A stretch of 64,000 bases of DNA from Patescibacteria group bacterium (GTDB lineage: Bacteria > Patescibacteriota > WWE3 > UBA101185 > UBA10185): contig JAHJEV010000004.1 in assembly GCA_018825365.1 (NCBI GenBank), positions 27,527 to 91,526 on the forward strand, written 5' to 3'. Numbering within the stretch: position 1 is the first letter of the stretch; each line of letters begins with the position of its first letter. Shown here in pieces: positions 13,488-56,780 of this stretch. The notes under the pieces are model-generated. The model saw nothing but the letters and a program-made list of their open reading frames with translations, ran no database searches and was not told the DNA's origin. Both the position numbers and the translations under genes were made by a program.

Positions 13488-13535
13488 AAAGGTGAAAATG
13501 AAAAGTGAAAACTAGATCTAATCTATCAAAAAATT

Positions 13536-14150: not shown

Positions 14151-14206
14151 ATAAAAATTATAGCAATAATAAGTACCAACAAGAAACAAAAAACCGGAAT
14201 TTTGAT

Positions 14207-37018: not shown

Positions 37019-39275
<2,257 letters not shown>

Positions 39276-39279
<4 letters not shown>

Positions 39280-40781: not shown

Positions 40782-41259
40782 CTTTTGTCCTAAGATAATT
40801 AGCGATAACTGAATTAAATGTTAAATTGACATACTTACCACCAATAAAAAACTTCGCCCCACCTTTAAGTTTGGGGTTTAATTCAATATCCAACACAAAG
40901 TTTCCAAAACCAGACTCCTTTATTGTTTCGTGGGCTTCGTTTATAAAATCCTGTGACGGTTCGAATGCAATTTCTATTTTTACAAGTTCAGCCCCAGACA
41001 CCAGCTTTGTTAACTCCTCAAGCACTGCTCTAACGGACTTGGGACTCACATTTCCTGAGATCTGCCTGCAGATTTTTTCAAACCACAAAGGTTTAACTTT
41101 GTACTCTGCCTTTAACACAGCCTCACTAATGCATTTATCTACAATGTTTTTATCAAACTTCTCAGTCCCATACGTTTTTTCTATTACCATGCCAGCAAAT
41201 TCATAAAATTCATTCGCCTCATCTTTTGTTTTTATCAGAGATATAAAATCTTCCTTCAT
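40759..41259 (-). CDS. atpH: F1Fo ATP synthase subunit delta (OSCP)
   Basis: 166 aa upstream of atpA in operon order. Confidence 0.65.
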   Translation of the reverse strand: MKEDFISLIKTKDEANEFYEFAGMVIEKTYGTEKFDKNIVDKCISEAVLKAEYKVKPLWFEKICRQISGNVSPKSVRAVLEELTKLVSGAELVKIEIAFEPSQDFINEAHETIKESGFGNFVLDIELNPKLKGGAKFFIGGKYVNLTFNSVIANYLRTKDVINQYL

Positions 41260-41310
41260 AATCTTTAAACCTGTCTTCTGGTCCGCAATTTGTGAAATAT
41301 TGTTACAAAA

Positions 41311-42099
41311 TTACTTACCAGCACCAGGACGAACTGCTTCTCTCATCCCGGATTTCCTAAGTTCTTCCTTCAACATGCTTATTACTAACTTTTCTTGCTT
41401 AACTTGGTCCAAATCTTGCTTTATCACTTCGGCATATACGTTCGCCAGAATATCGAATATCCTGTTGTTAAGGTTTTTTAACTTCTCTGCCTTATATGCC
41501 TCTATTTCCTGCTCAATGGTTGCATATTCAGCCTGGACCTTGTCTTCAAGTTGACCCGTAGCCTCCAGGGTCTCTTTTTTGATAGCCTCTTTAAAATCTG
41601 TTACACCTTTCAAAGCCTCCTTTTTCATTGATTCCGTAGCCTCGTACAGTGTTCTGATATTATCTTCCTTGCCCTCTTCCACCGCATTTTTGTATGAATT
41701 AAGCAAATCTTTTGATAAATCCGCTAGAGATTTTTCCTGTTTTTCATATATGTTGTAAAGGTTATTATCGAGTTTTTCTTTACTTTCTTTGGATATCGTA
41801 TATGTGCTATTCAAAATACTCTGCGCCTTTGATTGGGCCCTTCCTAAGATCTTTAGAGAGTCTGCTTTAGCCCTATCTAATATCTTCAAGGCATCTTGAT
41901 AAGCACCTGCGCTTAAATTCTCACCCTCACATGATCCCCTGTTAAGTTTTCTCCTGCCCATTTTCTTACCTTTAGCAACAAGCAAGGAATAAGCTAAAAG
42001 AAGAAATCCTGTAAACAATAAGGCTAGCGCCAAAGTATCAAAATCAGCTCGACCGGAAACTATTATTTTGTCAGAAAATATAAAGGGCAGTGATTTCAT
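41311..42099 (-). CDS. atpF: F1Fo ATP synthase subunit b (long form)
   Basis: Single N-terminal TM followed by a long charged coiled coil; operon position. Confidence 0.6.
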   Translation of the reverse strand: MKSLPFIFSDKIIVSGRADFDTLALALLFTGFLLLAYSLLVAKGKKMGRRKLNRGSCEGENLSAGAYQDALKILDRAKADSLKILGRAQSKAQSILNSTYTISKESKEKLDNNLYNIYEKQEKSLADLSKDLLNSYKNAVEEGKEDNIRTLYEATESMKKEALKGVTDFKEAIKKETLEATGQLEDKVQAEYATIEQEIEAYKAEKLKNLNNRIFDILANVYAEVIKQDLDQVKQEKLVISMLKEELRKSGMREAVRPGAGK

Positions 42100-42153
42100 A
42101 AGAATATTATATCTATGACTTTAGTTAATGCAAAGGTTAAATAAAAATCAATA

Positions 42154-43005
<852 letters not shown>

Positions 43006-44099
43006 TCAATATCATTAGTGAACTGCAATTAAAATGTTCGAATAAACAACAGACACACAACTACGATGCACAAACAGGAAATAAACAGAAATATAAAAAT
43101 TAATACAACAATGCCCTCAGTAAAAACTTTACCAAATATTGTCACTACGATATTTGGTAGGGTTGAAAATAACCCACAAAATACTGAAACAACTATAAAA
43201 TTATAAAATCCGAACAAAAAATACACCGAAAACTAAAAATACTCCAGCAACAAGAAAAAATCGAGTCAAAAGTATCTTATAGCCACTAAAATCTCTCTAC
43301 TTATGCTATAAGCCTACAAATTTTGACCGCATAAATTTACTATGAACCCCTACATTATTGATGGGCTTGAAAAATAAATACTCATTACTCACTAACTCAA
43401 CATTGATATAAAAAACATCTCGTAAATTATTGCAACCACAACCAACACACAAGTTAACGTTCCGGTTTCAAAATTAAGGCCGCAGAATGCCCTATTTTGA
43501 ATTTATTTGCAATTCTGGACCCAATATACCTTCAAACATAAAACACGGGATTTTAGAGGGCAAAAATCACCGCGATTTTTCAGAAAACTAAAAAAGTACC
43601 GGTGTTTCTACCGAGGCTAACAATGGGTCAATTATCTAAACAAAATAAGGAACTACTAAGATCTGAGCAATGTAAATATATATAAACAAAATTGCATATA
43701 AACTAATTTTTAATATTTTTGCCAAGTGCATTAAAAACAACCCCAACAAACGAATATTTGAATTTGAGTATTTAAATTATCCGATAAAATGCATCAGAAA
43801 ATAAAAAATTAAACCTTGTTATTTATTAACATAATAGCAACATACCCCACTCTACCAAGGTTGTTTTATGCTCCCAAGCAACGTATTTAGAATAACCATT
43901 CGAACCTTGCTTTTTATTGTAACAAAAGCAAAATGCCCCACTCTAACAAAGTAGTGTGTATACTTCTAAACCAAGGTTTTTGATACAAAACACATTTTAG
44001 AAATTATCTATAACGAACTAATAGAAAACATAGCAAAAGTGGTATGAGTAAAATCGTATCCCAAAACCTTATCAAATGTTATCACATAAAGAAAAGTAC

Positions 44100-44128
44100 T
44101 TGACATTGACACTGAATATTACTAAAAT
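44100..44128 (+). promoter_or_regulatory. perfect-consensus sigma70 promoter TTGACA-17-TAAAAT driving the giant gene
   Basis: -35 TTGACA (44100-44105), 17-nt spacer, -10 TAAAAT (44123-44128), ~55 nt upstream of the 44182 start; end of a 1.2-kb AT-rich non-coding region. Confidence 0.6.
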
Positions 44129-44181
44129 ATTTATAACATTACTAAACATCATTGTAGCAATATTTAGTAAGGTTTTTTTCA

Positions 44182-47100
44182 ATGAGCCTGCCTGCCCAAG
44201 AAAACGCACAAAGAAATAATGACACAAAGTATGACTTCCAAAGATTTGGAAGTTTAAAAGTTTCTCAAGCCGCAAAAATTTTAGGTATATCCCCTTCCTC
44301 ACTTAGACGCTTCGAAAAAGAAGAAAGAATTACCTCGGAAAGAGCCCCCGGAAATAACTATAGAACCTACAGATTGGATCTAGTAAACAGGCTAAAAGCC
44401 GAGCTACAAAACGATGGTACCAACAAACAGCTTCTGGTCAAGAGGAAAAAACTTAGAAAAACTCAGAAATACTCCCCAGAAAAAATAAATACAGGTCTAA
44501 TAAAAACCAAACCAGGGATAATACCTTCCCCAGCCCCAGTATTTAACATGGATATACCTTCGGCGCCATACCATGTCAAACCTTATGTACCAGTATCCCC
44601 CTCGCTAGAAAAACTAGACGAATCGATTAAGACAAAGGGTGACAAAGAGGAAAACTTGAACTTACCGGAGGTAGTTCCTTCATATGAAAAAATAGTCACA
44701 TACAAACCAGCAGTAGCCAAATTAAGTTTAGGCAGAGTTTTCGCCTTGATATCTACTCTCGTACTAGTATCCACAATCCTTATTTTCCCCGTGAACTTTT
44801 CAAAAGTTCTTTCAGATTTTAGATCTAAAGTTCAAAACGGACTTGTCAACGCTAAGAATCTGTCAAATGTTCTTAGTACTTTAAACTTTGGATCAAAAAA
44901 GCTAGCTGAAAAGAAATCAACTGCCCCAAGTGAACTTTTGGCAAATGTACTTGCCGCAAGTGCCCGAGTTTCAAATTACGTTTACAACATCAATATTCCA
45001 GTATTTTTCAAAAAACCAGCAACATTTGAAGACACCCTAACGGCAGAGCAGCTGGCAACTTTCAACGCCGCTATTACCACAACCAATGTAACTTTCAAAG
45101 GCACCGGTTTAATAAATAACCTTTTAGGTATTGATGTAGTAACAAAAACCACACTCGAAAGAGACTTGGATATTGACGGACAGATAACAAGCACAGGAAT
45201 GGGAGACACGGTAATAAGCAAGGGAATTATAACAGGACCGATGCTCAATTCAAACATAACATATTCCGGTAAATTTAATTTTTCAGGAACAATTGCACTA
45301 AAAGGAACAACAATTACATCAACAGCAGCCGAGCTTAATCAACTGGCAGGACTTTCATATGAAAGCGGCGGCATATTTTACGGAGACGGGACCGGATTTT
45401 ATCAGGATACTTCTTATCTGTTTTGGGACAGCACAAACAAAAATCTAGGTATAGGAACTAGTTCTCCCACTGCAACTCTAGAAATAATAAGCTCGGGAAC
45501 AGGTACCTCTACGTCAACTTTATGGACTAAGAATTCTACTGGAACAACAGGTTTATTTGTACAAAATAGTGGGAATGTGGGTGTCGGAACTACAGCCCCG
45601 GCCACAGCTTTGGAAATCGGTGGAAGCGGAAATCTAAGAATAGGAGGATTAACTGCTTTATCCGGTGTATATACAGATGCTGACAAAACCCTGGTCTCTA
45701 CCCCACCTACTTCAGGAACTTTAGGCTATTGGCAAAGAAACGGAACTTATGTTTCTCCAGCGACAATCACTGACAATGTAGGTATTGGTACCACCGCTCC
45801 TTCAGCACTTCTTGAAGTAAACGGTACCTCATGGCTTCGAGGTGGAACAGCACCTACTTCAGGTTTGTTCGTAAATTCAAGTGGCAACGTCGGCATCGGA
45901 ACAACAAACCCGGGAGCTAAACTGGACGTACGGGGAGGATTGAATACTGGAACCAATGGAACAGAATTTACAGTTTCTGACACTGGTATAGTTACTGCAG
46001 CCACCTCATTTCTAGCTCCAACTTTTGATACTGCTACCGGAGTGGCTATGAATATCGGAACTGCCACTCAAACTGCCCTCACCCTTGGTAGGGCGGGAGC
46101 AACCACAACCATTAACGGTTCCGGCTTAACGGTTGGGCCAACCGCTTGGACCGCAACTCCAACTATCTCCGGACTGATTACCGCTACCTCCGGCTTAACT
46201 GCCAATGGAGCTTTAACCGCTAACAGCACTTTCACGCTTGGAGATGATGGAGACCTCGGATCGATTGATACTTCTGACTGGAATATCACAACAACTGGAG
46301 CAATGACCGGAATTTCAGGAATTGCTAATGATGGTGCCTACACTCAATCAGGAACATCGGCTAACACTTTTACTGGAACCTCAACTTTTTCCAATGCCAC
46401 CTACTCCGCCTTTTTTACCGGTGGTAACGTAGGTATCGGCACGACAGAGCCAGGCAGCAAGTTGGAAGTTGCGGGAACCTTTACCGTTTCCGGCAGCAAC
46501 CTAACCACTCTCGGAGGCAATCTGACAGTTACCGGTACTACTTGGACAGCCACCCCGACAATTTCCGGTTTAGTAACCATGACCTCAGGTTTTGACAGCA
46601 ACGCCGCCTCAACCGTCTCTTCCTTAACCATAGATGCCAACACTGGAAATGCTCTAACTATTTCCGGAACCGGTTTTACCACTGACATTACCCTCCAAAA
46701 CGGGGAAACAATTGACAATGACACTGACGGCACAATCTTACTCACCGCTCCCACCACTAAAACTTCAGGCAATCTGTATGCGGGAACATCAGGGACAGGA
46801 ACAATCACCTCAGGTTTAATTAACGGTCAAACTATATCCTCCGCCGCTAATTTCACCGGCACCGGAATTTTTGCTTCAACTCTAACTGCTTCCAATGGCT
46901 TAACTTTAACTACCGGAGCTTTGAATTTGACATCAACTTCCGGCACAGTTAACCTAGCAACGACTTTTAACCAAGTGGGCGCTACAACCATCAACACTTC
47001 AGGCACTGCCAACACTACTATCGGCAATACCGCAGGCGGGACAATCACAATCGGTGCCGCCTCCGGAAGCGATCTTGCCTTAAATGACGCCCAATGGTCA

Positions 47101-50100
47101 ATTACCGGGGCCGGAGCGGCCAACTTTACTGGTTTAACTTCATCAGGAACAATTACCTTTTCCGGCTTGACCGCTTCAAGAGGAGTATTTACCGCTACCG
47201 GAGGGCAATTAGCTACTTCGGCTACTTCCCAATACCTAATTGACTCTCTTTCCGACGAAACAGGGTCGGGAGCTTTGGTCTTTAGTAACAGCCCGGCAAT
47301 TACCACCCCGACCATCACCACTTCAGCTACCGTGCCTTTATTAATTGGTGGTACAGCTGCCAACAGCACTTTGACTTTGAGATCCACTTCGGGTACGGGC
47401 ATAACCGGAGCTGACATTCTTTTCCAGACCGGTAACAACGGGGCTACTGAAGCCATGAGAATTTTGAACTCGGGCAATGTGGGTATTGGGACGACCAATC
47501 CACAGTATGCTCTTGAAGTAGGAGGAAGCGGGAATGTGAGAATCGGAGGACTTAGTGCCTCAATGGGAGTATATACCGATGCAAATAAGCAGCTAACTTC
47601 CACTCCTCCTACCTCCGGGGGTTTAGGATACTGGACAAGAAGTGGTACTACTCTTTGGCCTACCGCAAATACGGATAATCTAACCACTCTTGGCAACATT
47701 GGCATAGGCACCACCTCCCCCACCTCTTCTCTTCATCTTAATGCGTCTGCCCCCAGTGGCATTATATTTAATCTTGCCTATGGTGCATCCACAGTAATTG
47801 ACAACGATCTTACCGGCGCCAAGTTTAACCTTGATGACGGCACAGTCGTTGCAACCAACCAGAATATCACAGGCTTGGAGGTAAAGTTGCCAACCGTCAC
47901 CAACACCCATACAACAGGCACCAAAACGCTCAAAGGATTTTATGTAAACTTCGGAACCGGATCAGGCTTAAACCAAACCGGCGTCGGCGGCACCACCACC
48001 TACAATGCCCTTCACGTGGATCTTCCCGCCCTTACCCAAACGGCCGGAACGTTAAACATTAATGGTTTGTATGTGAACTCTCCGTCCAGTATCACAACCG
48101 GCGGTACGGCAAGCGGTCTTTATATAAACTCCACAGGAGTTAATGCAGGCGCGCTGTACGGGGTGAATGTAAGTAATATAACGGCAGGCGCGGGAACCGA
48201 ACGGGCGATTAACATAGGGAGTGGCTGGGACAGCGTTTTAGCAGTAAACGGTACCGTGATAATAAGCGGCTCGGGAGTAACCCAAACAGCCGGCGGCGGC
48301 ACCGGTTTTTCCACGTATACCAAAGGAGATGTCCTATACTCGGACGCGGCCAACTCGCTTGCTAAACTTGGCATTGGCACTGTCAATCAAGTTCTCTCCG
48401 TTACCGCAGGAGGAGTGCCGGGTTGGGGAACTATGGACGGTACAAGCTGTGTCAACTGTCTTATTAGCAACCCCACCGGAGATCAAATCATTGCTCCTAC
48501 CGGACAGGGTACGACAGGACTAGTTGTTCGCCAGACCTCAACCTCCTCTCCTACCGATGATATTTTTGCTGTTACCAATAGCGCCGGTGATAATAAATAT
48601 TTTTATGTTGACTACGCGGGCGTTGTCAATATCCCAAGTATCGGCTCCTCCAGCGGAGACCAGCTAACTATTGAACCAGGAACAGACAAATACGCCCTTA
48701 AACTTCTGGGCACCAATGTGGCGGCAAACAGCCTTCAGCTTATTGACAGCTACAACACTTCGGGCACCATTTTTGATCTTGACTACCCAGCGGCAAGAAC
48801 GCTTTCAGGCGCACTTGTTGGTATGGATATTGACCTTTCCACCAATCTAACAGTAACAAACCAAAGCGTAACCGCTCAAAAAATTACTTTACCCACTTTT
48901 ACCAATACAAATACCACAGGTACCAAGTCGTATTTGGGTATGCAAATTGCTCCCCCGGGAGCTGGCGGTGTTAACCAAAATGGTATTGGTGGAACAAGCG
49001 AGTACATTTTGGCGGATCTTACCATGCCTGCTCTTACCCAAACAGCAGGAACGCTTAATGCCTACGGGGTCAAAATCATAACACCTTCGTCCATCACCAC
49101 CGGCGGTACTGCTTATGGGGTTAATATAAACGCAAGCGGAGTCGGAGCAGGCACGCTTTACGGGATGAATGTAAGTAATATAGCGGCAGGCGCGGGAACC
49201 GAACGGGCGATAAACATCGGCACAGGCTGGGATTATGGTATCTACTCGGAAACCACAGGCAACTCCTACTTTGCAGGCAGTGTTGGCATCGGAACAACAA
49301 ATCCCACCGCAGCTCTTGATGTTGCTGGAGGAATAAAAGCAACTACATTTAATGGCAATATTATCTCCACAGGTACTGGAACTTTAACACTGGGGGCTTC
49401 AAAAACTTTAACTGTTAATGATTCCACTGTTTTGAATACTAATACCGTTACCTTCGGAGGAACAGAAATATTAACTTTAACCGCAGGAAAGAATGTAACC
49501 TTTGCTGATTCCTTTACCACCTCGGGATCAAATTCTCTCACACTAACAACTACCGGGTCAACCAATACAACCCTGCCAACCACAGGAACTCTTGCTACCT
49601 TAGCCGGAATAGAAACATTCAGCAGCAAAACATTTAGCGGAAATACATACTTTCCTGGATCTGGTATCTGGGATGCAGGAGGCAACATCGGCATCGGGAC
49701 GACAGCTCCGAAGAACAAGCTAGATGTATTTGGTGCTATGGCTATAGGGTCATACGCAGGTGTGAATACGGCACCGAGCAACGGGATGATAATATCTGGC
49801 AACGTCGGCATCGGGACGACGGGACCGGGGGCGACCCTGCACGTTCAAAAAGGTGCTGGTGTAACGGCGGTATCAGACAGCAACGCAGTGTTTCAACTCA
49901 CATCTGATGGTAATGCATCAAATATGTGGTTTAACATTAAGACAGGAGCCAATGGTGGAACCAATGGGACATTTGGATTTGCTGAAGCTGGGACTATTAA
50001 GGGCGGAATATTATGGGACGTGGCAAACGCCTCATTTAATTTATCTAGTGACGTAAACACTACAGCGACTTCAAGGCAAGTGATTATTAAAGCAGGCAAC

Positions 50101-53100
50101 GTCGGCATCGGGACGACGGGTCCCGTGGCCAATTTACACATTGTTGGCTCAACCTTGTTTGGCTCCTTAGCCGTGGCCGACAAGGTCACTGGCGGAAACA
50201 TCGGTACCGCCGCTGCCACCGTTGATATATATACCAGCTTCAATCTGTCCCAGGCCACCGCGGGCCAAACCATTACCCTGCCCGATCCAACTAATACCAC
50301 GGCCGGCAGATTAGTCTATCTTTCCAATACCGGTTCGGCCACCTTTACTTTTTACAACTCCACGGTTAAAGTCGGCGATACCACCGCGGCCATTTGGGAC
50401 AGTGACTCCTGGAACCTGGCCGGCGGCGGCGGTTTGGCTCAAGGCACGGTTGATAATGCTACTTTAAGATGGAACAACTCAACCACTCAGTGGGTGGAAA
50501 ATACCAGTATTCTTACCGCGTTAAATCCAACAGCCGTAGGTTCTTATGGGTTGTCAGTTGGCAATTCTGGCGCTGTTGCCGGAACCGGATATGGCATTTA
50601 CACCACAAAGACCGGGGGCTCAACTACTAATGTAGCTTTGTATGCATCGGCATCCGGTGGCGCTGCAAATTATGCTGCCATTTTTGATTCAGGAAATGTC
50701 GGCATCGGGACAACTGCTCCCACATATAAACTGGATACCCAACTGGCAAGTAATGGAATAATTGCAAGATTTTCAGCAACAGATGCAAGTTTACTTATAG
50801 GAGCAGATGCTAGTGGTGGATATATACAACCAGGAACAGTAGATAAAACTACAATATATCAATCAAACGGCACATCAGCAGTAGTAACTGTAGACGCTAA
50901 CAAAGTAGGTATAGGAACGACTGCTCCATCAACAAAATTAGATGTGAATGGCACGATTACCAGCCAGACCGGAGCTGTAAACTCCAATGTGGCTGACTCT
51001 TCAACCGCCATCGCCTTTTTACTGGCATCCAATAATACTTTATCCACCCAGGGCGCCAAACTCCTTTCTTTGAAAAACGCCTCAACGGAAAAGTTTTACA
51101 TTGACAAAGACGGCAATCTCTATACGGCCGGCACCATTCTGGCCGGCAATGGCACCGGCATACTGATGATTAACAAATCCGGCGGCACGGTCGCTAAGCG
51201 CAGTTTAGTCGTCATTGACATCACCACCAACTCCGCCTTTGCCACTACCACCACCGCCTACGCCAAATCCAGTTTTGGCGTGATTACCGGCGTCGGGCTT
51301 GGAGTAGCCTATGACGCCGATGGCGACGGCGCGTGCGACGCCGAAGATGTCTGCATGGTGGCGGTTGGCGGCGAAGTGGAAGTTCTTCTGACCAACGCGT
51401 CTACCGCCGTTAAAGGCGACTATATTTATACCTCGGCCACGGCCGGTTCGGGCGTGTCCAGCGCCAAGCAGTTTGACGGCCTTATCGGCATCGTCAGCAA
51501 CACGGCCGGCTCTGCTTCCGGCTATGGCAAAATGATTTTTAAAGTCCAGCCCCAGGTCTCCGGCTCGCAGTTTTTAACTAAAGAAGACACAGCTTTGGCT
51601 AATGGCGGTTATGTGGAGATAGTCCACAATCAGAGCACTAATGATGTGGTGACCAATGGGTGGGTGTACAACACAACCACCAGTAAATGGGAAATAGTTG
51701 GTGATAGTGGGGATGCAATTGGTGGAACAGTAACATATAAAGATGGATATACCATCCATACATTTACCAGTAGCGGAACCTTCACGCCAGTTAGTGCTGG
51801 AAATGTTGAAGTTTATGCTTGGGGTGGTGGCGCAGGTGGTGGGTATAACGCCGGTGCCGGAGGTGGTGGAGGAGCAGCTAATGGTACAGTAACAGTTGCG
51901 GCATCTTCTTATGTTGTTACTGTTGGTGGCGGTGGATTATCTAGGGCACCGGATGCTGGTCCTGGACCAGCAGTTGTTGGTGGAGGTGGTTTAGCAGGTA
52001 ATCTTGGTTATGGTGGTCAAGGCGGAGGTTTATCTGGAATTTTTATAGGATCTTCTTCTCAAGTCAATGCTCGCTTAATGGCTGGTGGGGGCGGTGGTGG
52101 TGCTTACGAAGGTGCTAATGGCGGTGCTGGAGGCGGCACTAATGGCGTTGCTGGTGGCAACGGTTTAGATGCTGGTGGTGGTGGAGGAACACAATCTGCT
52201 GGTGGCACATCTGTTTCCTCTACCGGTTCTGCGCTACAGGGAGGTTCTTCTGGTGCTCAAGGTGATGGTGGCGGTAGCGGTGGTGGAGGTGGTGGTTATT
52301 GGGGTGGAGGAGCTGGTAGTAATACCAATCCTGGTTCTGCTGGTGGTGGCGGTGCAGGATTTTATAACCCAACTTATGCTTCCTCTGTAACATTAACTGC
52401 AGGTTCTGGAACAACACCTGGTGATTCAGGTAATTCTTTAAGAGGTTCTGCTGGTAATGGAGGTGCGGCTGGTAATAATGCAGGTACAGCCGGCATTGTC
52501 ATTGTTAGATATCTGACGAATTCGTTGAGCGCTTTCAAAATCACCCAGCAGGATACCAATACGGTTCGGCTTTATAATTATTCCGGCGCGACGCAATATG
52601 TCAGGTTAAATGTTATTCCTTCCGGCGGCGGCGGTTCGCCGGGCGGCGGCGCCGGGCTCTACACCAATAACAACGCCTCCGTTGCCAACGGCTCCTACAT
52701 CGACGTGGCGCACAACCAGAACACCGCCGACCTGGTAAGCAACGGGTGGATTTACAATACAGCTACTAGCAAATGGGAACAGATTGACAAAGATAGTAGT
52801 GATGCCACTGGCGGAACAATAACATATAGCGGTGGATATACCATTCATACTTTTACAAGTAGCGGAACATTCACACCACCAAATAATGGAAATGTTGAAT
52901 ATCTTGTGGTTGGAGGAGGAGGAGGAGGTCATACGGGAGGTGGTGGGGCGGGTGGATATTTGACTGGAACAGATTCATTATCCGCAACCTCTTACAATGT
53001 TATAGTTGGAGCAACAGTGGGCGCATATACAACTGGAAACAATAGTTCATTCAATGGCAAAATAGCTTCTGGCGGAGGTCTTGGAGGAAATGTAGGTGAA

Positions 53101-56076
53101 GCAGGGGGAGATGGAGGTTCGGGTGGTGGTGCGGGTGCGGGTGGTGGTGTGTATGCACATGGTCACGCAACTGGTACTCCGAGTAGCCAAGGTCATGATG
53201 GGGGCATAAACTATAATAGCTCTCCTTATCCTGCTGGTGGTGGCGGTGGCGCAGATACAGTAGGTTCAGATGGAACGTCTAATGGAGGTGGAAATGGGGG
53301 CGCAGGACTAACATCAAGTATTAGTGGAAGTTCAGTAGGTTATGCAGGTGGGGGTGGGGGTTATAGTCAAGATACAAAACCTCCAGGAACTGCGTCCCAT
53401 GGAGGAGGAGCAGGAGTAGGGCAAACGGGCACTCCCAATGCTGGCACACCTAATACTGGCGGAGGCGGCGGCGGCGGACAGAATGGTGGTGCAGGTGGTT
53501 CCGGCATTGTCATTGTCAGATATTTAACCAATTCTTTAAGTGCTTTCAAAATCACCCAGCTCGATACCAACACGGTACGGCTCTACAACTACTCCGGTAC
53601 TACTCAAAACTTACGGCTTGATGTCATTACCGGAGGATTGGGCCGAAACGCCGGCACCGTGTCTTTGGCGCCGGCTGCCGCCGACGTTGACAGCCAGGAT
53701 AACTCCAACAGCATCTGGATCAACAAAACCGGAGCCGGGGGCTTGCTGCTCAAGCTCCAATCTGCGGCTGCGGATGTTCTCACTTTGGCCAAGAGCGGCC
53801 TGATGACCTTGGCCGGCAGTTTCGTTCCCGCTACCAACGATACCTATGATTTGGGTTCGGACGCCTTGAGATGGCAGTCTGCCTACATCGGGCCCGGGAC
53901 AGTGCACATTGGCACCTCCACCGCTGATGAGTACACTATGTCATATGACACAACTAACAACCGCTTGGGTTTCAATGTCAACGGTTCGGGCGATGCGGAA
54001 ATCGTCTTTGATTCCTCCGGCAACGTCGGCATCGGGACGACGGGACCAGAATCTAAACTACATGTTATGTTTAATAGCGCAGGTACAATCACAGGTTTTT
54101 CCGACGCATTAATTGTTGAAAACAACGCGAATGCTTATTTGAACCTCATTGGTTCAACTTCTGGAATAAAGGCGATTACTTTTGGAGACCCAACTGCCGG
54201 TGTGGTAGATGGTCAAATCACCTACAATGCCCTCGCTACTGACATGCTTGACTTTCGTGTTGCTGGTAATTCTGTAAAGATGGTGATTGACTCTTCCGGC
54301 AACGTCGGCATCGGGACGACGACGCCTGCAGCTAGAACACACATAGTCAATACTACAGCTACCGCACTAAGGTTGGATGTAAATGATGCATTTTCTTATG
54401 CGGAGTTTTATACTGGTGCAACATATCGTGGAAATATAACATATCAGGCGGCAAGTACTGCTTTGCGATTGACTGCTGGAACAGCACAGAACTTACTCTT
54501 AACTGCTGCGGATAGTAATGATAAAGGGATATTTATAAAAACAGACGGCAATGTCGGCATCGGTACAACAGCTCCGAAGAACAAGCTAGATGTATTTGGT
54601 GCTATGGCTATAGGGTCATACGCAGGTGTGAATACGGCACCGAGCAACGGGATGATAATATCTGGCAACGTCGGCATCGGGACGACGGGGCCGGGGGGCA
54701 AGTTAAGCATTTATGATACGTCAGCCGGTGCTAACGATAGGGTACAGATAGTCAGCGATCTAAGTTCGAGCGTGGACCAGTTGGTACTCCATCATTATGG
54801 GACGGCAGGAACTCAGCTTGCGTCATTTTGGAGAGGCAGGGGCACTTTCTCTTCACCAACAGCTTTATCGAATGGTGATGCAATCGGTCAATTTAATTTC
54901 GTAGGATATGACACAAGTAACACGGCTCAGACAGGGGCAGGATTCGGGGCAGTAGTAGATGCGGCTCCAGGAGCTGGAAGCGTTCCTATTGCAATAAGAT
55001 TTTTAACAGGTACCACAGGAGGTGGGACGGAACGGGTCAGAATTGATAGTACCGGCAACGTCGGCATCGGGACGACGGGGCCAGTGAGCTCGCTAGAAAT
55101 AAAAGGTCCGAACACTGTAAATACTCCGCGCTTAACGCTCAACCAACTTTATAACGCAGGAGCGTCGGCGTGGGGTATTGATTTCACTCGCACCTACGAC
55201 ACCGGTGGTGACGGACAAAACGCGGGGTACATTCGTATTGGCCGTGCCGGGGGAACCTCAAATTCGGGTATGTTTTTTGGGCTTGGTGACCAAGGTACAG
55301 TCGCAGATAGAATGACTATTCTTCCAAGCGGCAACGTCGGCATCGGGACGACAGGTCCAGGGTATACATTAACAGTTGCAGGTACTGCCTGGGTTACAAG
55401 CGGCGCCTGGTCTGGTTCGGATGTTAGATGGAAAGAAAATATTCAGCCTATAGCAGGAGCCTTGGACAAAGTACTGCAACTCTCCGGAGTTTTCTATAAC
55501 TGGAGAAAAGACGAGTTTCCAGAAAATAAATTTGATGACAAAACTCACTTGGGGTTAATTGCTCAGGATGTAGAAAAAATTGTTCCCGAACTGGTAACCA
55601 CAGGACCAGACGGCTATAAAGGTCTTGATTATAATGGATTAGCGCCTCTTTTAATTGGGGCCGTACAGGAACAGCAGGGGCAAATCTCGCTGCTGTCAGG
55701 ACAGCTGGTAAGCTTATCAAATATCGTCCGTGTTGAAGGCTCGTGCGTTACCGGTGACACATTGCTTCCCATCCGCCGCCGACGCAAAAGTCTAAGTGGT
55801 CTGGAATCCGAGGACGACAATGGGTTATTTGATTACCTGTTGATCCGTATCGATGAAATACTACCTGGCGATGAAGTCTCGTCCTTAAATGAGTTTACAG
55901 GCTCTCTAGAATGGCATAAAATAAATGCCTCGATGGATATGGATATTAAGGAAGTTTTTGAGCTTACAACCAAATCAGGAAAAGTAATCAGGACAACAGC
56001 CAAGCATCCTTACTTAACTTTGTTGGAAGATAAATTGGAAGGTAACCCTGTAGTTAGTAAAGAAGGAATAAAATAA
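44182..56076 (+). CDS. giant (3964 aa) cell-surface protein: N-terminal HTH, single TM, tail-fibre-like 'GNVGIGTTxP' repeat array, tandem Gly-rich modules, peptidase-S74 intramolecular chaperone domain, C-terminal split-intein N-fragment
   Basis: Single uninterrupted ORF. HTH 'LKVSQAAKILGISPSSLRRFEKEERI' (aa 22-50). TM 'RVFALISTLVLVSTILIFPV' (aa ~184-204). Many 'SGNVGIGTT(A/N/G)P..KL(D/E)V' repeats. S74 motif 'SDVRWKENIQPIAGALDKVLQLSGVFYNWRKDE...LIAQDVEKIVPELV'. Final 110 aa 'CVTGDTLL...VIRTTAKHPYLT...' are intein blocks A and B. Confidence 0.85.
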   Translation: MSLPAQENAQRNNDTKYDFQRFGSLKVSQAAKILGISPSSLRRFEKEERITSERAPGNNYRTYRLDLVNRLKAELQNDGTNKQLLVKRKKLRKTQKYSPEKINTGLIKTKPGIIPSPAPVFNMDIPSAPYHVKPYVPVSPSLEKLDESIKTKGDKEENLNLPEVVPSYEKIVTYKPAVAKLSLGRVFALISTLVLVSTILIFPVNFSKVLSDFRSKVQNGLVNAKNLSNVLSTLNFGSKKLAEKKSTAPSELLANVLAASARVSNYVYNINIPVFFKKPATFEDTLTAEQLATFNAAITTTNVTFKGTGLINNLLGIDVVTKTTLERDLDIDGQITSTGMGDTVISKGIITGPMLNSNITYSGKFNFSGTIALKGTTITSTAAELNQLAGLSYESGGIFYGDGTGFYQDTSYLFWDSTNKNLGIGTSSPTATLEIISSGTGTSTSTLWTKNSTGTTGLFVQNSGNVGVGTTAPATALEIGGSGNLRIGGLTALSGVYTDADKTLVSTPPTSGTLGYWQRNGTYVSPATITDNVGIGTTAPSALLEVNGTSWLRGGTAPTSGLFVNSSGNVGIGTTNPGAKLDVRGGLNTGTNGTEFTVSDTGIVTAATSFLAPTFDTATGVAMNIGTATQTALTLGRAGATTTINGSGLTVGPTAWTATPTISGLITATSGLTANGALTANSTFTLGDDGDLGSIDTSDWNITTTGAMTGISGIANDGAYTQSGTSANTFTGTSTFSNATYSAFFTGGNVGIGTTEPGSKLEVAGTFTVSGSNLTTLGGNLTVTGTTWTATPTISGLVTMTSGFDSNAASTVSSLTIDANTGNALTISGTGFTTDITLQNGETIDNDTDGTILLTAPTTKTSGNLYAGTSGTGTITSGLINGQTISSAANFTGTGIFASTLTASNGLTLTTGALNLTSTSGTVNLATTFNQVGATTINTSGTANTTIGNTAGGTITIGAASGSDLALNDAQWSITGAGAANFTGLTSSGTITFSGLTASRGVFTATGGQLATSATSQYLIDSLSDETGSGALVFSNSPAITTPTITTSATVPLLIGGTAANSTLTLRSTSGTGITGADILFQTGNNGATEAMRILNSGNVGIGTTNPQYALEVGGSGNVRIGGLSASMGVYTDANKQLTSTPPTSGGLGYWTRSGTTLWPTANTDNLTTLGNIGIGTTSPTSSLHLNASAPSGIIFNLAYGASTVIDNDLTGAKFNLDDGTVVATNQNITGLEVKLPTVTNTHTTGTKTLKGFYVNFGTGSGLNQTGVGGTTTYNALHVDLPALTQTAGTLNINGLYVNSPSSITTGGTASGLYINSTGVNAGALYGVNVSNITAGAGTERAINIGSGWDSVLAVNGTVIISGSGVTQTAGGGTGFSTYTKGDVLYSDAANSLAKLGIGTVNQVLSVTAGGVPGWGTMDGTSCVNCLISNPTGDQIIAPTGQGTTGLVVRQTSTSSPTDDIFAVTNSAGDNKYFYVDYAGVVNIPSIGSSSGDQLTIEPGTDKYALKLLGTNVAANSLQLIDSYNTSGTIFDLDYPAARTLSGALVGMDIDLSTNLTVTNQSVTAQKITLPTFTNTNTTGTKSYLGMQIAPPGAGGVNQNGIGGTSEYILADLTMPALTQTAGTLNAYGVKIITPSSITTGGTAYGVNINASGVGAGTLYGMNVSNIAAGAGTERAINIGTGWDYGIYSETTGNSYFAGSVGIGTTNPTAALDVAGGIKATTFNGNIISTGTGTLTLGASKTLTVNDSTVLNTNTVTFGGTEILTLTAGKNVTFADSFTTSGSNSLTLTTTGSTNTTLPTTGTLATLAGIETFSSKTFSGNTYFPGSGIWDAGGNIGIGTTAPKNKLDVFGAMAIGSYAGVNTAPSNGMIISGNVGIGTTGPGATLHVQKGAGVTAVSDSNAVFQLTSDGNASNMWFNIKTGANGGTNGTFGFAEAGTIKGGILWDVANASFNLSSDVNTTATSRQVIIKAGNVGIGTTGPVANLHIVGSTLFGSLAVADKVTGGNIGTAAATVDIYTSFNLSQATAGQTITLPDPTNTTAGRLVYLSNTGSATFTFYNSTVKVGDTTAAIWDSDSWNLAGGGGLAQGTVDNATLRWNNSTTQWVENTSILTALNPTAVGSYGLSVGNSGAVAGTGYGIYTTKTGGSTTNVALYASASGGAANYAAIFDSGNVGIGTTAPTYKLDTQLASNGIIARFSATDASLLIGADASGGYIQPGTVDKTTIYQSNGTSAVVTVDANKVGIGTTAPSTKLDVNGTITSQTGAVNSNVADSSTAIAFLLASNNTLSTQGAKLLSLKNASTEKFYIDKDGNLYTAGTILAGNGTGILMINKSGGTVAKRSLVVIDITTNSAFATTTTAYAKSSFGVITGVGLGVAYDADGDGACDAEDVCMVAVGGEVEVLLTNASTAVKGDYIYTSATAGSGVSSAKQFDGLIGIVSNTAGSASGYGKMIFKVQPQVSGSQFLTKEDTALANGGYVEIVHNQSTNDVVTNGWVYNTTTSKWEIVGDSGDAIGGTVTYKDGYTIHTFTSSGTFTPVSAGNVEVYAWGGGAGGGYNAGAGGGGGAANGTVTVAASSYVVTVGGGGLSRAPDAGPGPAVVGGGGLAGNLGYGGQGGGLSGIFIGSSSQVNARLMAGGGGGGAYEGANGGAGGGTNGVAGGNGLDAGGGGGTQSAGGTSVSSTGSALQGGSSGAQGDGGGSGGGGGGYWGGGAGSNTNPGSAGGGGAGFYNPTYASSVTLTAGSGTTPGDSGNSLRGSAGNGGAAGNNAGTAGIVIVRYLTNSLSAFKITQQDTNTVRLYNYSGATQYVRLNVIPSGGGGSPGGGAGLYTNNNASVANGSYIDVAHNQNTADLVSNGWIYNTATSKWEQIDKDSSDATGGTITYSGGYTIHTFTSSGTFTPPNNGNVEYLVVGGGGGGHTGGGGAGGYLTGTDSLSATSYNVIVGATVGAYTTGNNSSFNGKIASGGGLGGNVGEAGGDGGSGGGAGAGGGVYAHGHATGTPSSQGHDGGINYNSSPYPAGGGGGADTVGSDGTSNGGGNGGAGLTSSISGSSVGYAGGGGGYSQDTKPPGTASHGGGAGVGQTGTPNAGTPNTGGGGGGGQNGGAGGSGIVIVRYLTNSLSAFKITQLDTNTVRLYNYSGTTQNLRLDVITGGLGRNAGTVSLAPAAADVDSQDNSNSIWINKTGAGGLLLKLQSAAADVLTLAKSGLMTLAGSFVPATNDTYDLGSDALRWQSAYIGPGTVHIGTSTADEYTMSYDTTNNRLGFNVNGSGDAEIVFDSSGNVGIGTTGPESKLHVMFNSAGTITGFSDALIVENNANAYLNLIGSTSGIKAITFGDPTAGVVDGQITYNALATDMLDFRVAGNSVKMVIDSSGNVGIGTTTPAARTHIVNTTATALRLDVNDAFSYAEFYTGATYRGNITYQAASTALRLTAGTAQNLLLTAADSNDKGIFIKTDGNVGIGTTAPKNKLDVFGAMAIGSYAGVNTAPSNGMIISGNVGIGTTGPGGKLSIYDTSAGANDRVQIVSDLSSSVDQLVLHHYGTAGTQLASFWRGRGTFSSPTALSNGDAIGQFNFVGYDTSNTAQTGAGFGAVVDAAPGAGSVPIAIRFLTGTTGGGTERVRIDSTGNVGIGTTGPVSSLEIKGPNTVNTPRLTLNQLYNAGASAWGIDFTRTYDTGGDGQNAGYIRIGRAGGTSNSGMFFGLGDQGTVADRMTILPSGNVGIGTTGPGYTLTVAGTAWVTSGAWSGSDVRWKENIQPIAGALDKVLQLSGVFYNWRKDEFPENKFDDKTHLGLIAQDVEKIVPELVTTGPDGYKGLDYNGLAPLLIGAVQEQQGQISLLSGQLVSLSNIVRVEGSCVTGDTLLPIRRRRKSLSGLESEDDNGLFDYLLIRIDEILPGDEVSSLNEFTGSLEWHKINASMDMDIKEVFELTTKSGKVIRTTAKHPYLTLLEDKLEGNPVVSKEGIK
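49705..49824 (+). repeat. ~120-nt perfect intragenic direct repeat, copy 1 (copy 2 at 54571-54690)
   Basis: Identical stretch 'gctccgaagaacaagctagatgtatttggtgctatggctatagggtcatacgcaggtgtgaatacggcaccgagcaacgggatgataatatctggcaacgtcggcatcgggacgacggg' at both sites. Confidence 0.8.
54571..54690 (+). repeat. ~120-nt perfect intragenic direct repeat, copy 2
   Basis: See copy 1; 4.87 kb apart in the same reading frame, encoding 'APKNKLDVFGAMAIGSYAGVNTAPSNGMIISGNVGIGTTGPG'. Confidence 0.8.
55417..55743 (+). other. peptidase S74 / intramolecular chaperone auto-processing domain (sub-feature of the giant CDS)
   Basis: 'SDVRWKENI...FYNWRKDEFPENKFDDKTHLGLIAQDVEKIVPELV' matches the tail-spike/endosialidase C-terminal chaperone domain (SDxRxK Ser-Lys dyad region). 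Confidence 0.7.
55744..56073 (+). other. split-intein N-terminal fragment (Int-N; Hint blocks A and B), DnaE-split-intein-like
   Basis: Block A 'CVTGDTLL' at the extein/intein junction (…VEGS|C); block B 'GKVIRTTAKHPYLT', close to the cyanobacterial DnaE Int-N block B 'GSVIRATSDHRFLT' as recalled; ORF stops 20 aa later, as in natural Int-N. Confidence 0.75.
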
Positions 56077-56201: not shown

Positions 56202-56780
56202 ATGAAAATTAACCAAAATATGAAAAAATTCCAAAAAACTCTGGAATTAAAAGGCAAAACGGCTGTCCTCATTGATTGGGCTAACGTTCACGGATGGGCA
56301 GAATTGGGTCACTCTGAAGTTAATCTAAAAAAGTTGTTTAAATACTTAAGAGGGTACAAAAAGATTAAAGCAATAAATCTATATTTCGGTAAGGATACTC
56401 ATCCAAAATCAAAAAAGTTTTTAGGTGAAGCGAAGAAAATAGGTTTTAAGGTAATCACAAAACCAGTTAAATATATCAAGGTGGCTGTATTCCAAAATAA
56501 ACCAATTTTCCGACGAAAGTGCGACTTTGATATGGAAATTTGTATTGATATTCACAAACATTTAAGCCAAAATTATGATAGTTTCATTTTCTTTTCTGGC
56601 GATGGGGACTTTGAGCCTCTTTATAGACTATTAATCGAAAGACATAAACAGGTTATTGTAATATATGGACAAGGCCATCTGGGAAGGGAGATTTACTCAA
56701 TAAAACAGGGGTTATATAAACTCGATATTAATAAGTTGGGGTCAGTAAAAAATGACCCCCCGGTTTCCCGGAGGGCGTGA
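56202..56780 (+). CDS. NYN-domain (LabA/YacP-like) protein
   Basis: 'KTAVLIDWANVHG' N-terminal acidic motif and 'FFSGDGDFEPL' NYN signature; 192 aa. Confidence 0.7.
   Translation: MKINQNMKKFQKTLELKGKTAVLIDWANVHGWAELGHSEVNLKKLFKYLRGYKKIKAINLYFGKDTHPKSKKFLGEAKKIGFKVITKPVKYIKVAVFQNKPIFRRKCDFDMEICIDIHKHLSQNYDSFIFFSGDGDFEPLYRLLIERHKQVIVIYGQGHLGREIYSIKQGLYKLDINKLGSVKNDPPVSRRA

Follow-up and report, generated by a model that had tools for sequence, protein, structure and literature searches.

BldC of Streptomyces (PDB 6ama, 6amk), the founder of the minimal family of proteins with a MerR-like winged helix-turn-helix (wHTH), is a free 68-residue cytoplasmic protein which forms head-to-tail oligomers on direct repeats of 9 bp (PMC5859096). 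In regulators of the ToxR/CadC/TcpP type, an N-terminal, cytoplasmic DNA-binding domain is joined through a linker to one membrane helix, beyond which lies an extracytoplasmic domain, and three published accounts describe these regulators as binding DNA while embedded in the membrane (PMC5430869, PMC6320335, PMC10629549). The MerR-like wHTH proteins RacA of Bacillus subtilis and the Xis-type excisionases tether or shape DNA without sensing a ligand, and neither contains a membrane helix. RacA makes contact with the membrane indirectly, by way of a coiled coil and DivIVA, and has numerous GC-rich binding sites, and the Xis proteins are free recombination directionality factors, unlike the membrane-borne head described below. 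RodZ is likewise built from a cytoplasmic HTH, one membrane helix and an extracytoplasmic part, in that order, but it shows no sequence relationship to this head, its HTH is of the Xre type and binds MreB rather than DNA, and its periplasmic domain is small. To our knowledge, regulators of the ToxR/CadC/TcpP type are not known from the CPR bacteria (Patescibacteria), which are ultra-small, mostly host-attached organisms whose regulatory repertoires are reduced and which have many giant surface proteins without an assigned role.

Here we document the domain, its fold class, the architecture and its conservation, and the conserved cis elements of a gene from a CPR bacterium of the WWE3 group, located within a 64-kb stretch of DNA (the window, i.e., the whole stretch that was analysed). 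The 3,964-aa ORF (44182–56076, + strand) begins with a MerR-type winged HTH at aa 24–78. This ~55-residue domain is shared with BldC, down to the lack of a coiled-coil helix and an effector domain; here, however, it heads a 3,964-residue membrane protein, and the candidate binding sites comprise inverted repeats and a single half-site in direct orientation. With ToxR, CadC and TcpP the protein shares the order of parts, but those regulators combine an OmpR/PhoB-type winged helix with small sensor domains, whereas here a MerR-type domain is combined with a fibre of ~3,760 residues. Because the head is of the MerR/BldC type and not of the OmpR type, the likeness to ToxR and CadC is one of logic and not of family. 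We found no publication on MerR domains in CPR/Patescibacteria or in membrane-anchored or giant proteins that describes this architecture.

The N-terminal domain is a minimal MerR-type winged HTH

The preliminary description of this locus had proposed an HTH at the N-terminus of the giant protein, and this proposal is borne out by Pfam matches above the cut-offs, profile matches to PDB structures, an AF2 model and Foldseek comparisons. The domain (44251–44415, + strand) is recognized by the MerR HMMs as an N-terminal winged HTH, with matches to Pfam MerR_1 (PF13411; aa 26–73, E 1.9e-7, 31.5 bits versus a cut-off of 21.6) and MerR (PF00376; aa 27–63, 29.7 bits versus a cut-off of 28.2). The PDB structures matched by the family profile are the MerR DNA-binding domains of BrlR, CueR, BldC and GlnR, the BldC profile matching the family at E 1.8e-5. 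The AF2 model has a pLDDT of 80–89 across aa 21–80, and its element order (strand, two helices, two strands, helix) is that of a MerR-type winged HTH. When this model was used in Foldseek, complexes of BldC with DNA came out best (rmsd 1.7 Å over 50 residues, 30% identity), followed by RacA, SoxR, GlnR, MtaN and Xis (Pukovnik Xis). The peptide originally quoted as the HTH, LKVSQAAKILGISPSSLRRFEKEERI, is present in the protein, although it spans residues 25–50 and not 22–50.

In the family alignment, R42, R54 and R61 are invariant, R43 and Y60 are nearly so, and the GYR.Y wing motif is invariant or nearly invariant. The profile alignment places R43, R61 and R54 of the head opposite Arg30, Arg47 and Arg41 of BldC, of which Arg30 is base-contacting and Arg47 is a wing residue (PMC5859096). 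The coiled-coil dimerization helix of the MerR type is absent, the AF2 model showing only a 14-residue helix (aa 65–78), past which the pLDDT falls to 50–57. Scans against Pfam and NCBIfam detected no effector- or metal-binding C-terminal domain of the MerR type, the linker and the membrane helix being found instead, and the 3,964-aa protein has no Pfam match to Trans_reg_C (PF00486, OmpR/PhoB-type). The N-terminal ~80 residues, which are translated and under selection, form a minimal BldC/Xis-like winged HTH of the MerR type, without a coiled-coil or effector domain. The head thus has the domain composition of the BldC family and departs from it in not being a free-standing protein of ~60–80 residues, given that it forms the N-terminus of a 3,964-aa ORF, likewise in the orthologues.

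The head and the giant protein are a genuine fusion

The start codon opens a conserved N-terminal motif, M-S-L-P-A-Q (44182–44199, + strand; family and leader alignments), which is kept in relatives as M-x-L-P-A-Q and in which codons 3–6 (CTG CCT GCC CAA, 44188–44199) are invariant at the nucleotide level. The ATG at 44182 is the first start past an in-frame stop at 44155, and the nearest in-frame alternative starts are not conserved because the linker is not. Beyond codon 6, codon-level variation occurs at 20 of the 22 columns with an invariant residue, mostly in the third position, and on these alignments the HTH residues are judged to be under purifying selection at the protein level.

It had been considered earlier that the HTH might be a fossil of a fused upstream regulator gene or that the true start might lie downstream of it. 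The fossil is ruled out by the single-ORF fusion in all clean loci together with the purifying selection, and the downstream start by the conservation of both the M-x-L-P-A-Q start and the promoter. A search of the orthologues for a separate small regulator gene returned none. On two short metagenome contigs (L001, L002) the HTH does occupy a separate ORF, as would be expected if it were an annotation or assembly artefact, or a decaying remnant, with the real protein starting downstream; however, one break traces to a homopolymer whose length differs by 2 nt and the other to a gap filled with Ns, and every other locus is intact. The frameshift in L001 yields a free 157-aa HTH protein, and the intact versions of this locus, L021 and L024, do not contain it. 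Given the selection on the HTH and the conserved start and promoter, we consider this reading effectively refuted.

A predicted disordered tether leads to a single predicted membrane helix

Past the HTH, the protein continues with a basic stretch (aa ~84–100, LLVKRKKLRKTQKYSPEK) and a Pro-rich low-complexity linker (aa ~110–141), which together occupy 44431–44604 (+ strand). The linker is predicted to be disordered (pLDDT 50–57 past aa 80) and is conserved neither in sequence nor in length, the spacing between the HTH and the membrane helix ranging from 44 to 229 aa among relatives. A single transmembrane helix of the signal-anchor kind is predicted at aa ~184–205 (44731–44796, + strand), within the only Kyte-Doolittle segment above 1.6 in all 3,964 aa (aa ~177–211, with the peak of 2.54 at 186–204), and the 183 residues that precede the helix carry a net charge of +13. 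A conserved motif, NVLAASARVSNYVYNINIPVFF (NVLAARTRVSDF... in relatives), is located just outside the membrane (44944–45009, + strand). The order of HTH, basic stretch, Pro-rich linker, membrane helix and giant exodomain, which the preliminary description had put forward, is real and is conserved in relatives. It is the ToxR/CadC order of parts, and the N-in topology with a cytoplasmic head is predicted from hydrophobicity, the N-terminal charge and the fibre-like character of the remainder.

Among 1.84 billion cluster representatives, HMMER detected 138 proteins that match at E<=1e-3. Of the 66 relatives of at least 250 aa, 59 have a predicted membrane helix after the HTH, and in 57 there is exactly one such helix; the helix is located at a median of 91 aa downstream of the HTH (64 matches with a sequence-motif HTH before the helix). 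Matches of at least 900 aa number 27, the longest reaching 6,147 aa. Two copies of the HTH are present in 38 matches, three in one and eight in another, and such tandem copies fit a DNA-binding unit that would require more than one wHTH. In all eight species-representative GTDB genomes found, and in at least six further loci (L012–L016, L024, L028, L029), the HTH, the helix and the exodomain are encoded in a single ORF. The GTDB genome scan succeeded when seeded with a 6-sequence alignment; it gave no match with the single protein as query, and a 20-sequence alignment was too diverse as a seed. The exodomains of the relatives vary and include an S74 chaperone, an intein, FGE-sulfatase, Laminin_G_3 and beta-helix regions; therefore, the HTH-helix module has been reused. 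No further HTH-helix paralogue is encoded within the window, and its exact protein is absent from the contig index. Databases name the relatives "MerR family transcriptional regulator", and proteins of 2,800–3,900 residues have been deposited as "MerR family DNA-binding transcriptional regulator".

The exodomain is fibre-like and its gene is fractured by a split intein

The giant exodomain (44797–55743, + strand), which constitutes the N-extein, consists of fibre repeats of the GNVGIGTT type and Gly-rich blocks. C-terminal to this fibre region lies the intramolecular chaperone domain Peptidase_S74 (PF13884; aa 3746–3806, 55417–55599; 61.7 bits versus a cut-off of 22), which is also present in the relatives P0042 and P0032. 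Phage tail-fibre and endosialidase proteins share a C-terminal Peptidase_S74 domain after long fibre-like repeats, and in these proteins the domain drives trimerization and then cleaves itself off. However, they are soluble virion proteins without an anchor or an HTH, whereas here an intein and a further conserved domain follow the S74 domain. The remaining ~3,760 residues are predicted to be extracellular and tail-fibre-like, probably making up a trimeric fibre.

The ORF ends with the N-terminal half of an intein (55744–56076, + strand; Pfam Intein_splicing, TIGR01445), 110 aa that begin with Cys (CVTGDTLLP, aa 3855) and run to the stop codon. The C-terminal half (85 aa, ending in GIIAHN), followed by a 584-aa C-extein (TFLNDLVGIGTTNP...), is encoded at 58629–60638 on the + strand, so that the giant gene is fractured and the conserved C-terminal domain of the family comes to lie 2.5 kb downstream. 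The junction reads GIIAHN followed by T, and the two halves cover positions 10–74 and 112–155 of the 155 positions of Pfam Intein_splicing. Matches to the C-extein lie at the very C-terminal ends of P0058, P0102, P0022, P0134, P0033, P0061 and P0032; in P0032, a single protein, the N-extein part matches residues 2296–2547 and the C-extein part residues 2595–2828. Between the halves lie genes for NYN, PD-(D/E)XK and four-helix-bundle proteins. The arrangement is that of a split intein in a fractured gene, with splicing predicted. Dassa et al. (2009, in Nucleic Acids Res) reportedly described such "fractured genes" with split inteins. As in those fractured genes, one ancestral gene is here divided into two ORFs, the first closing with one intein half and the second opening with the other, with free-standing nuclease-type genes between them, but the host there is a cytoplasmic enzyme of DNA metabolism, whereas here it is an exported giant envelope fibre.

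Conserved candidate operator sites at the promoter of the giant gene

A sigma-70-type promoter-like site, TTGACA-17 nt-TAAAAT (44100–44128, + strand; 11 of 12 matches), precedes the gene. Across 10 related loci TTGACA does not vary and most have a TAnnAT-like hexamer, and TTGACA recurs in the distant L012–L014. The ~150 nt before the ATG are 77% identical across loci; further upstream, the leader cannot be aligned. A search of the leader for palindromic operator-like sites, as proposed in the preliminary description, did reveal candidates, here denoted P1 and P2. The palindrome P1 (TTACTAAACATC-ATTGTAGC-AATATTTAGTAA, 12-8-12; 44139–44170, without strand) follows the -10 hexamer and precedes the start codon, is kept in all loci of the clade and scores highest in the window on the composite measure (29.6). 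The half-site-like box H0 (AACCTTATCAAATGTT; 44065–44080, + strand) is located upstream of the predicted -35 and therefore outside the predicted transcript. In each of the nine loci examined the strongest half-site match falls at this offset, -115 to -118 from the ATG, and the core of H0, CAAAACCTT, is nearly invariant in the 10-locus alignment. The leader holds five of the six best half-site matches of the 64 kb.

P2 (TTACCAAATATT-GTCACTAC-GATATTTGGTAG, likewise 12-8-12; inverted repeat I1 at 43129–43160, or 43125–43164 including flanks, without strand) is located ~157 nt upstream of the start of the divergent orf272 (ATG at 42972; 42154–42972, - strand), the first gene of an operon that, by synteny and sequence features, is ATP-synthase-like and that is a possible second target of the head. 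Scored with a PWM made without the window's own site, P2 reaches 24.7, compared with a maximum of 23.6 and a 95th percentile of 15 in 200 shuffles of the 64 kb. Its half-sites rank second and fourth in the window, and P2 was seen in this genome only.

We weighed whether P1 is a DNA site or an mRNA hairpin. The arms of P1 pair in 83% of cells in 12 variants, compared with 30–47% with slid partners, but pair counts in the 12 variants showed no covariation above shuffles, RNAalifold gave a weak hairpin (-3.4 kcal/mol) with two compensatory pairs, and an Rfam scan of the 1.4-kb leader gave nothing at E<=1; the hairpin reading is not supported. Given that the symmetry of P1 is kept by conservation without compensatory change and that H0 lies outside the predicted transcript, protein-bound DNA is favoured, and P1 can be considered a candidate operator, an mRNA hairpin being less likely.

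Beyond the clade, a perfect 30-bp palindrome is located just before the ATG in L015 and one with 11-nt arms in L013, and palindromes near the ATG are individually significant in only 3 of the 10 subfamilies tested (combined p 0.002); the distant L012 and L014 have no P1 despite similar recognition helices. In the distant member with eight HTH copies, five tandem 9-bp repeats are found upstream of the gene, which we mention only as a lead. A metagenome scan for P1 gave 10 matches, 8 of them 8–10 nt upstream of an M[ST]LPAQ-HTH gene; the other two were discarded as unrelated palindromes with GCGATCGC, the cyanobacterial HIP1 motif. There is no sign of a regulon of P1-type sites in either search space, the full pattern occurring once in the window and the metagenome scan adding none; at a low threshold, single half-sites in the window number 8, without excess over the 7.2 in shuffles. 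The over-long 19–20 bp spacer with an internal dyad of classical MerR promoters is not seen here: the spacer is 17 bp, and P1 lies downstream of the -10 hexamer.

Functional implications

We propose that the head is a membrane-tethered, probably autoregulatory DNA-binding unit that combines a ToxR/CadC-like logic with a BldC-like domain, and we assign this reading a probability of about 0.5. In the mechanism that we infer, from DNA binding and the identity of the sites to the direction of regulation, topology and signalling, the head would be kept in the cytoplasm and held at the membrane by a disordered basic and Pro-rich tether of ~100 residues and an N-in signal-anchor helix. It would most likely bind an array of half-sites, AAC.TTACYAAAYAT, around its own promoter, made up of H0 before the -35 hexamer, P1 after the -10 hexamer and before the ATG and, in this genome, P2 facing the ATP-synthase-like operon. 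The protein would then act as a one-component regulator tethered to the membrane and would, at the least, control its own, very costly gene; the state of the fibre (for instance its oligomerization or contact with a host) might also be reported to transcription. The cognate site of the head is guessed from position and conservation. Against the pairing of the head with P1, a palindrome points to a symmetric dimer, whereas BldC binds direct repeats head to tail and the fibre is likely trimeric; moreover, the half-site cores are separated by ~24 bp, an unusual distance for an HTH dimer.

It is conceivable, though somewhat unlikely, that the conserved leader (P1, H0 and codons 3–6) serves another factor or RNA-level control of translation and is unrelated to the encoded HTH. 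The invariance reaches synonymous positions of codons 3–6, which a signal at the RNA level or in translation initiation could also explain, the right arm of P1 abuts a Shine-Dalgarno-like AAGG, and the RNAalifold hairpin has its two compensatory pairs; the absence of covariation above shuffles, the weak folding energy, the lack of an Rfam match and the location of both H0 and P2 outside the predicted transcript argue to the contrary. The head might also be an architectural DNA tether like RacA rather than a transcription factor, perhaps binding its own locus as a nascent chain and so coupling transcription, translation and membrane insertion. Complexes of RacA with DNA are among the best fold matches, the authors of the BldC work refer to RacA and Xis as MerR-like architectural proteins (PMC5859096), and one report has ToxR tethering DNA to the membrane (PMC10629549). 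Furthermore, the head is translated first from a 12-kb gene, with candidate sites at most 120 nt from its own start codon. We nevertheless regard this role as unlikely: scans of the window did not reveal the numerous dispersed sites expected of a chromosome anchor, and given that the candidate sites overlap the promoter, a transcriptional effect is predicted whatever else happens.

Regulated proteolysis, in which tethering keeps the head inactive until a regulated cut in the linker or membrane helix sets it free upon fibre load or damage, would suit a tether that is long, disordered and variable, the gene for a Peptidase_M50 (site-2 protease) near the orthologous locus in L003 and the free HTH protein of L001. 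It is very improbable, because no cleavage motif is conserved in the linker, M50 proteases belong to the housekeeping genes, the intact versions do not carry the L001 frameshift, and the ~100-residue tether should reach DNA uncleaved in ultra-small cells. Similarly poor odds attach to the idea that the HTH binds no DNA and instead serves in the cytoplasm for protein interaction or anchoring, as a folded plug that sets the N-in topology or attaches the fibre to a cytoplasmic partner. Such a plug has its precedent in the part order of RodZ, and DNA binding by the head is itself inferential; but a plug would not be expected to keep the arginines aligned with the DNA contacts of BldC and the GYR.Y wing motif invariant or nearly so, nor to come in arrays of two, three and eight HTH copies with a conserved half-site array beside the gene. 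Extending the membrane-tethered regulator to the giant fibres across the CPR, one can further imagine that the head binds its own operator in cis during synthesis, pins the locus to the membrane, blocks re-initiation and links the state of the fibre, for instance its attachment to a host, to the ATP-synthase-like operon via P2, a speculation that we rate as quite unlikely.

The present analysis corrects a systematic annotation error, in which giant fibres have been deposited as MerR regulators, and reveals a set of CPR giants of up to 6,147 residues that share a BldC-like head, a tether and a single membrane helix, with candidate operator sites conserved at the own promoter of giant-fibre genes. 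If the head does bind these sites, the proteins would be adhesin-like fibres and transcription factors at once, and would connect the surface with the genome by a minimal route and put the MerR fold to a new use. The cis-binding scheme with P2, if true, would amount to a direct mechanical-to-transcriptional wire in organisms with very few conventional signalling systems.

Architecture of the Giant Protein

The giant gene is a single open frame (44182..56076, + strand; 3,964 aa), and its ATG at 44182, preceded by an in-frame stop at 44155, is the first start codon available to it. The N-terminal head matches the Pfam families MerR_1 (PF13411; aa 26-73, E 1.9e-7, 31.5 bits against a cut-off of 21.6) and MerR (PF00376; aa 27-63, 29.7 bits against 28.2), and NCBIfam models of MerR-type heads (HspR, CueR, excisionase, IS607) match the giant protein below threshold only. 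The HTH peptide quoted in the preliminary description is present and corresponds to residues 25-50, its start having been placed three residues off, at 22; the basic stretch (aa ~84-100), the Pro-rich linker (aa ~110-141) and the hydrophobic helix (aa ~184-205) described after it were all located. This helix is the sole hydrophobic segment of the protein (Kyte-Doolittle peak 2.54), and the 183 residues preceding it carry a net charge of +13. We infer an N-in/C-out topology. In the exodomain, the part following the helix, the block GIGTTAPKNKLDVFGAMAIGSYAGVNTAPSNGMIISGNVGIGTTGPG is present twice, widely separated (long internal duplications), and two Gly-rich modules both end in ...GIVIVRYLTNSLSAFKITQ.DTNTVRLYNYSG.

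The HTH fold proposed for the N-terminal segment is borne out by the Pfam hits, profile matches to the PDB, AlphaFold2 and Foldseek. The family profile matched the MerR DNA-binding domains of BrlR, CueR, BldC and GlnR (E 8e-7 to 1e-4). An AlphaFold2 model of the head (aa 1-110, from a 51-sequence alignment) contains a strand (24-26), helices 27-34 and 38-46, strands 52-54 and 61-64, and a helix (65-78), with pLDDT of 80-89 for aa 21-80 and about 50-57 beyond. In Foldseek, BldC-DNA complexes came out on top (rmsd 1.7 A over 50 residues, 30% identity), followed by RacA, SoxR, GlnR, MtaN, Pukovnik Xis and CueR, with weak E-values (~6e-3) that are in line with a 55-residue domain flanked by disordered tails. 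The head contains neither a long coiled-coil helix nor an effector domain, which sets it apart from classical MerR regulators and makes it a minimal MerR domain of BldC/Xis-like type. BldC contacts DNA through Arg30, which reaches a base, and through the wing residue Arg47 (PMC5859096). In the HMMER alignment, BldC Arg30, Arg41 and Arg47 align with R43, R54 and R61 of the head, the last two of which are invariant across the family and the first nearly so.

Distribution and Selection Across Relatives

The nearest relative of the giant protein, at 85% identity, is a partial WWE3 protein. Searching 1.84 billion cluster representatives by HMMER with aa 1-300 of the giant protein gave 138 matches at E<=1e-3. 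Of these, 66 are at least 250 aa long; a membrane helix is predicted in 59 of the 66, and in 57 it is the only one. The HTH lies a median of 91 residues before the helix (range 44-229; 64 matches with a motif-detected HTH before the helix). The HTH occurs in two copies in 38 matches, three in one and eight in one (P0007), always before the helix, and 27 matches are 900 aa or longer, reaching 6,147 aa. Several such proteins (P0139, P0034, P0032 and P0065; 2,849-3,894 aa) are publicly named 'MerR family DNA-binding transcriptional regulator', an automatic label drawn from the first ~60 residues. Because the exodomains differ among relatives (S74 chaperone, complete inteins, FGE-sulfatase, Laminin_G_3, beta-helix), the head-plus-helix module is one that is reused with a variety of outer domains.

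A scan with one genome per species recovered eight loci, all in Patescibacteria MAGs labelled WWE3 or "Saccharibacteria", and in all eight the HTH, linker, helix and exodomain lie in one unbroken ORF, as far as the sequence extends. An HTH in a separate ORF was seen on two short metagenome contigs: one is broken at a stretch of Ns, and in the other (locus L001) an A-run is 2 nt longer than in the intact loci L021 and L024. These explanations leave no case for a separate small regulator gene in orthologues. The linker-coding nt 746-764 of L001 hold a 9-A homopolymer in place of AACCAAA, and the resulting frameshift leaves the HTH on a 157-aa protein of its own; the candidate explanations are a misassembly, a pseudogene and a slippage-prone switch.

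When nine loci are aligned by codon, 22 columns beyond codon 6 have an invariant residue; in 20 of them the codon itself differs between loci, chiefly at its third position. Since codons vary while residues stay fixed, the HTH is under protein-level purifying selection. This and the one-ORF architecture rule out the earlier suggestion that the head is a fossil of a fused upstream regulator gene. Likewise, a true start codon downstream of the HTH is ruled out by the N-terminal motif M-x-L-P-A-Q (looser form [PTS]-A-Q), which is kept even in distant members. One genome (L028) carries two HTH-giant genes in tandem (3001-14271 and from 14571 on; 3,756 and 4,645 aa), and thus the family can be paralogous within one cell.

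Conserved Sites in the Leader

A near-consensus promoter-like site, TTGACA-17-TAAAAT (44100-44128), precedes the ATG. The 1.2-kb leader is alignable to that of the syntenic WWE3 genome GCA_012798115.1 only over the last ~150 nt, which are ~77% identical across ten loci; the N-terminal 80 residues are ~52-65% identical to those of the window. The conserved blocks comprise a GAGTAA..CAAAACCTT box, the invariant -35 TTGACA, a TAnnAT-like -10 in most loci and the 32-nt palindrome P1 (TTACTAAACATY-N8-AATRTTTAGYAA; 44139-44170), which ends ~11 nt before the ATG. Hence the search for palindromic operator-like sites that had been recommended did produce candidates, namely P1, a second palindrome, P2, and the half-site-like element H0.

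Across 12 variants of P1, 83% of cells are complementary in the 18-pair symmetry versus 30-47% with the partners slid, covariation in these variants does not exceed that of shuffles, and the RNA folding energy of the region is weak. The latter two results suggest that the symmetry is held by sequence conservation and not by compensation, as would be expected of a protein-bound DNA site, unlike a compensating RNA helix. When a 12-8-12 weight matrix built from the other loci only, with the window excluded, was scanned over the 64 kb, P1 (29.6) and P2 (24.7) gave the best composite scores, the third being 10.9 and the highest among 200 shuffles 23.6. P2 (43129-43160), ~157 nt upstream of the divergent operon start, was seen only in this genome. 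H0 (44065-44080), which is the CAAAACCTT box, is the best half-site match at a constant offset (-115 to -118) in nine of nine loci, and the leader holds five of the six top half-site matches of the window. A half-site array is conserved around the promoter of the giant gene. A P1-pattern scan of metagenome contigs gave ten matches, eight of which precede an M[ST]LPAQ-HTH gene by 8-10 nt; the remaining two are unrelated palindromes with GCGATCGC, known as the cyanobacterial HIP1 motif. The scans found no regulon-type copies of the P1 pattern or the half-sites.

Every nucleotide of codons 3-6 (CTG CCT GCC CAA, Leu-Pro-Ala-Gln; 44188-44199) is identical in 10 loci, whereas elsewhere in the HTH synonymous sites vary freely; the protein motif may be overlaid by a signal read at the RNA or DNA level. 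L013 and L014, both distant loci, also have a GC-rich CTGCC-type motif at the ATG or just before it. Two 65-nt direct repeats (43800-43864 and 43891-43955; 74% identical), not seen at the syntenic WWE3 locus, lie where the leader is not conserved, with AACCTTG..CAAGGTT-type inverted repeats within and beside them.

Elements of a similar kind occur in other subfamilies, but palindromes before the ATG are individually significant in only three of ten. The gene for P0007 (locus L015, start 2467) is preceded by a perfect 30-bp palindrome (2433-2462), 4 nt before the ATG, and, ~115-160 nt upstream, by five tandem 9-bp repeats (GAGATWSGG; 2307-2351), equal in length to the 9-bp repeats bound by BldC protomers (PMC5859096). 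The L013 leader contains an inverted repeat with 11-nt arms.

Gene Neighborhood and a Split Intein

Next to the giant gene, and divergent from it, lies an ATP-synthase-like operon (beta, gamma, alpha, delta, b-like orf262, then orf272; 37019-42972, - strand). This adjacency spans 11 loci (window, L003, L006-L008, L010, L012-L014, L029 and the P0032 locus) with N-terminal regions only ~31-52% identical to that of the window over the matched stretches; the P0042, P0058 and P0007 loci have other gene contexts. The pairing could reflect inherited gene order or shared control via the intergenic region. The protein encoded by orf272 (42154-42972, -) begins with a signal peptide, continues as an outer domain of ~150 aa and closes with a two-helix hairpin that is like the ATP-synthase c subunit, yet without the carboxylate in helix 2. 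By tblastn, the outer domain (aa ~103-174) is similar to a portion of the C-terminal domain in the giants of L011, L012 and L013 (E 2e-8 to 6e-7).

The last 110 aa of the giant ORF, starting at Cys 3855 (Cys1), are an N-terminal intein half (55744-56076). Three ORFs intervene, encoding NYN (56202-56780), PD-(D/E)XK (56907-58232) and a 138-aa protein (58229-58645) that has no Pfam match and looks like a four-helix bundle, before an ORF (58629-60638) that consists of the 85-aa C-half, ending GIIAHN|T, and a 584-aa C-extein. In seven other family members the counterpart of this C-extein is the domain at the very C-terminus, and in P0032 the N- and C-extein parts are contiguous within a single protein. 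Together, the two intein halves and this contiguous counterpart indicate that the giant gene is a fractured one, divided at a split intein. The downstream half lacks a signal peptide, and splicing would therefore need to take place before or during export.

Proposed Function of the Head and Alternative Readings

In the giant protein a conserved, selected BldC-like wHTH is followed by a disordered tether, whose length varies among relatives, by one hydrophobic helix and by a fibre-like exodomain with an S74 chaperone. S74 domains in phage fibres are associated with trimerisation and, by analogy, the giant fibre would trimerise. We propose, with a probability of roughly one half, that the head is a membrane-tethered DNA-binding domain with at least an autoregulatory role. 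It would bind the candidate sites H0, P1 and P2, and the giant gene would be regulated by its own head. Held at the membrane, the head would act on its own promoter, by the logic of ToxR and CadC with a different DNA-binding fold.

Several other readings compete with this proposal. The head could be a non-transcriptional DNA tether of the RacA type, a RodZ-type domain for protein interaction, or a domain released by proteolysis. Alternatively, the conserved leader element could serve another factor or act as RNA, a reading kept alive by the nucleotide-level invariance of codons 3-6; the pattern of conservation in P1, as discussed, points to a protein-bound DNA site.

By HMM and fold the head belongs to the MerR superfamily, while it lacks three hallmarks of the classical MerR regulators: a coiled coil, an effector domain and an operator placed inside a long spacer. 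The likeness to BldC is at the domain level, BldC being a free small protein and the head the N-terminus of a giant; the OmpR-type domain of the ToxR family is absent from the head. We found no description of the head-helix-giant-fibre architecture in the literature. On the proposed reading, the giant protein is best described as a variant of membrane-bound one-component regulators, in which a BldC-like head is joined to a giant fibre, a design so far seen only in Patescibacteria.
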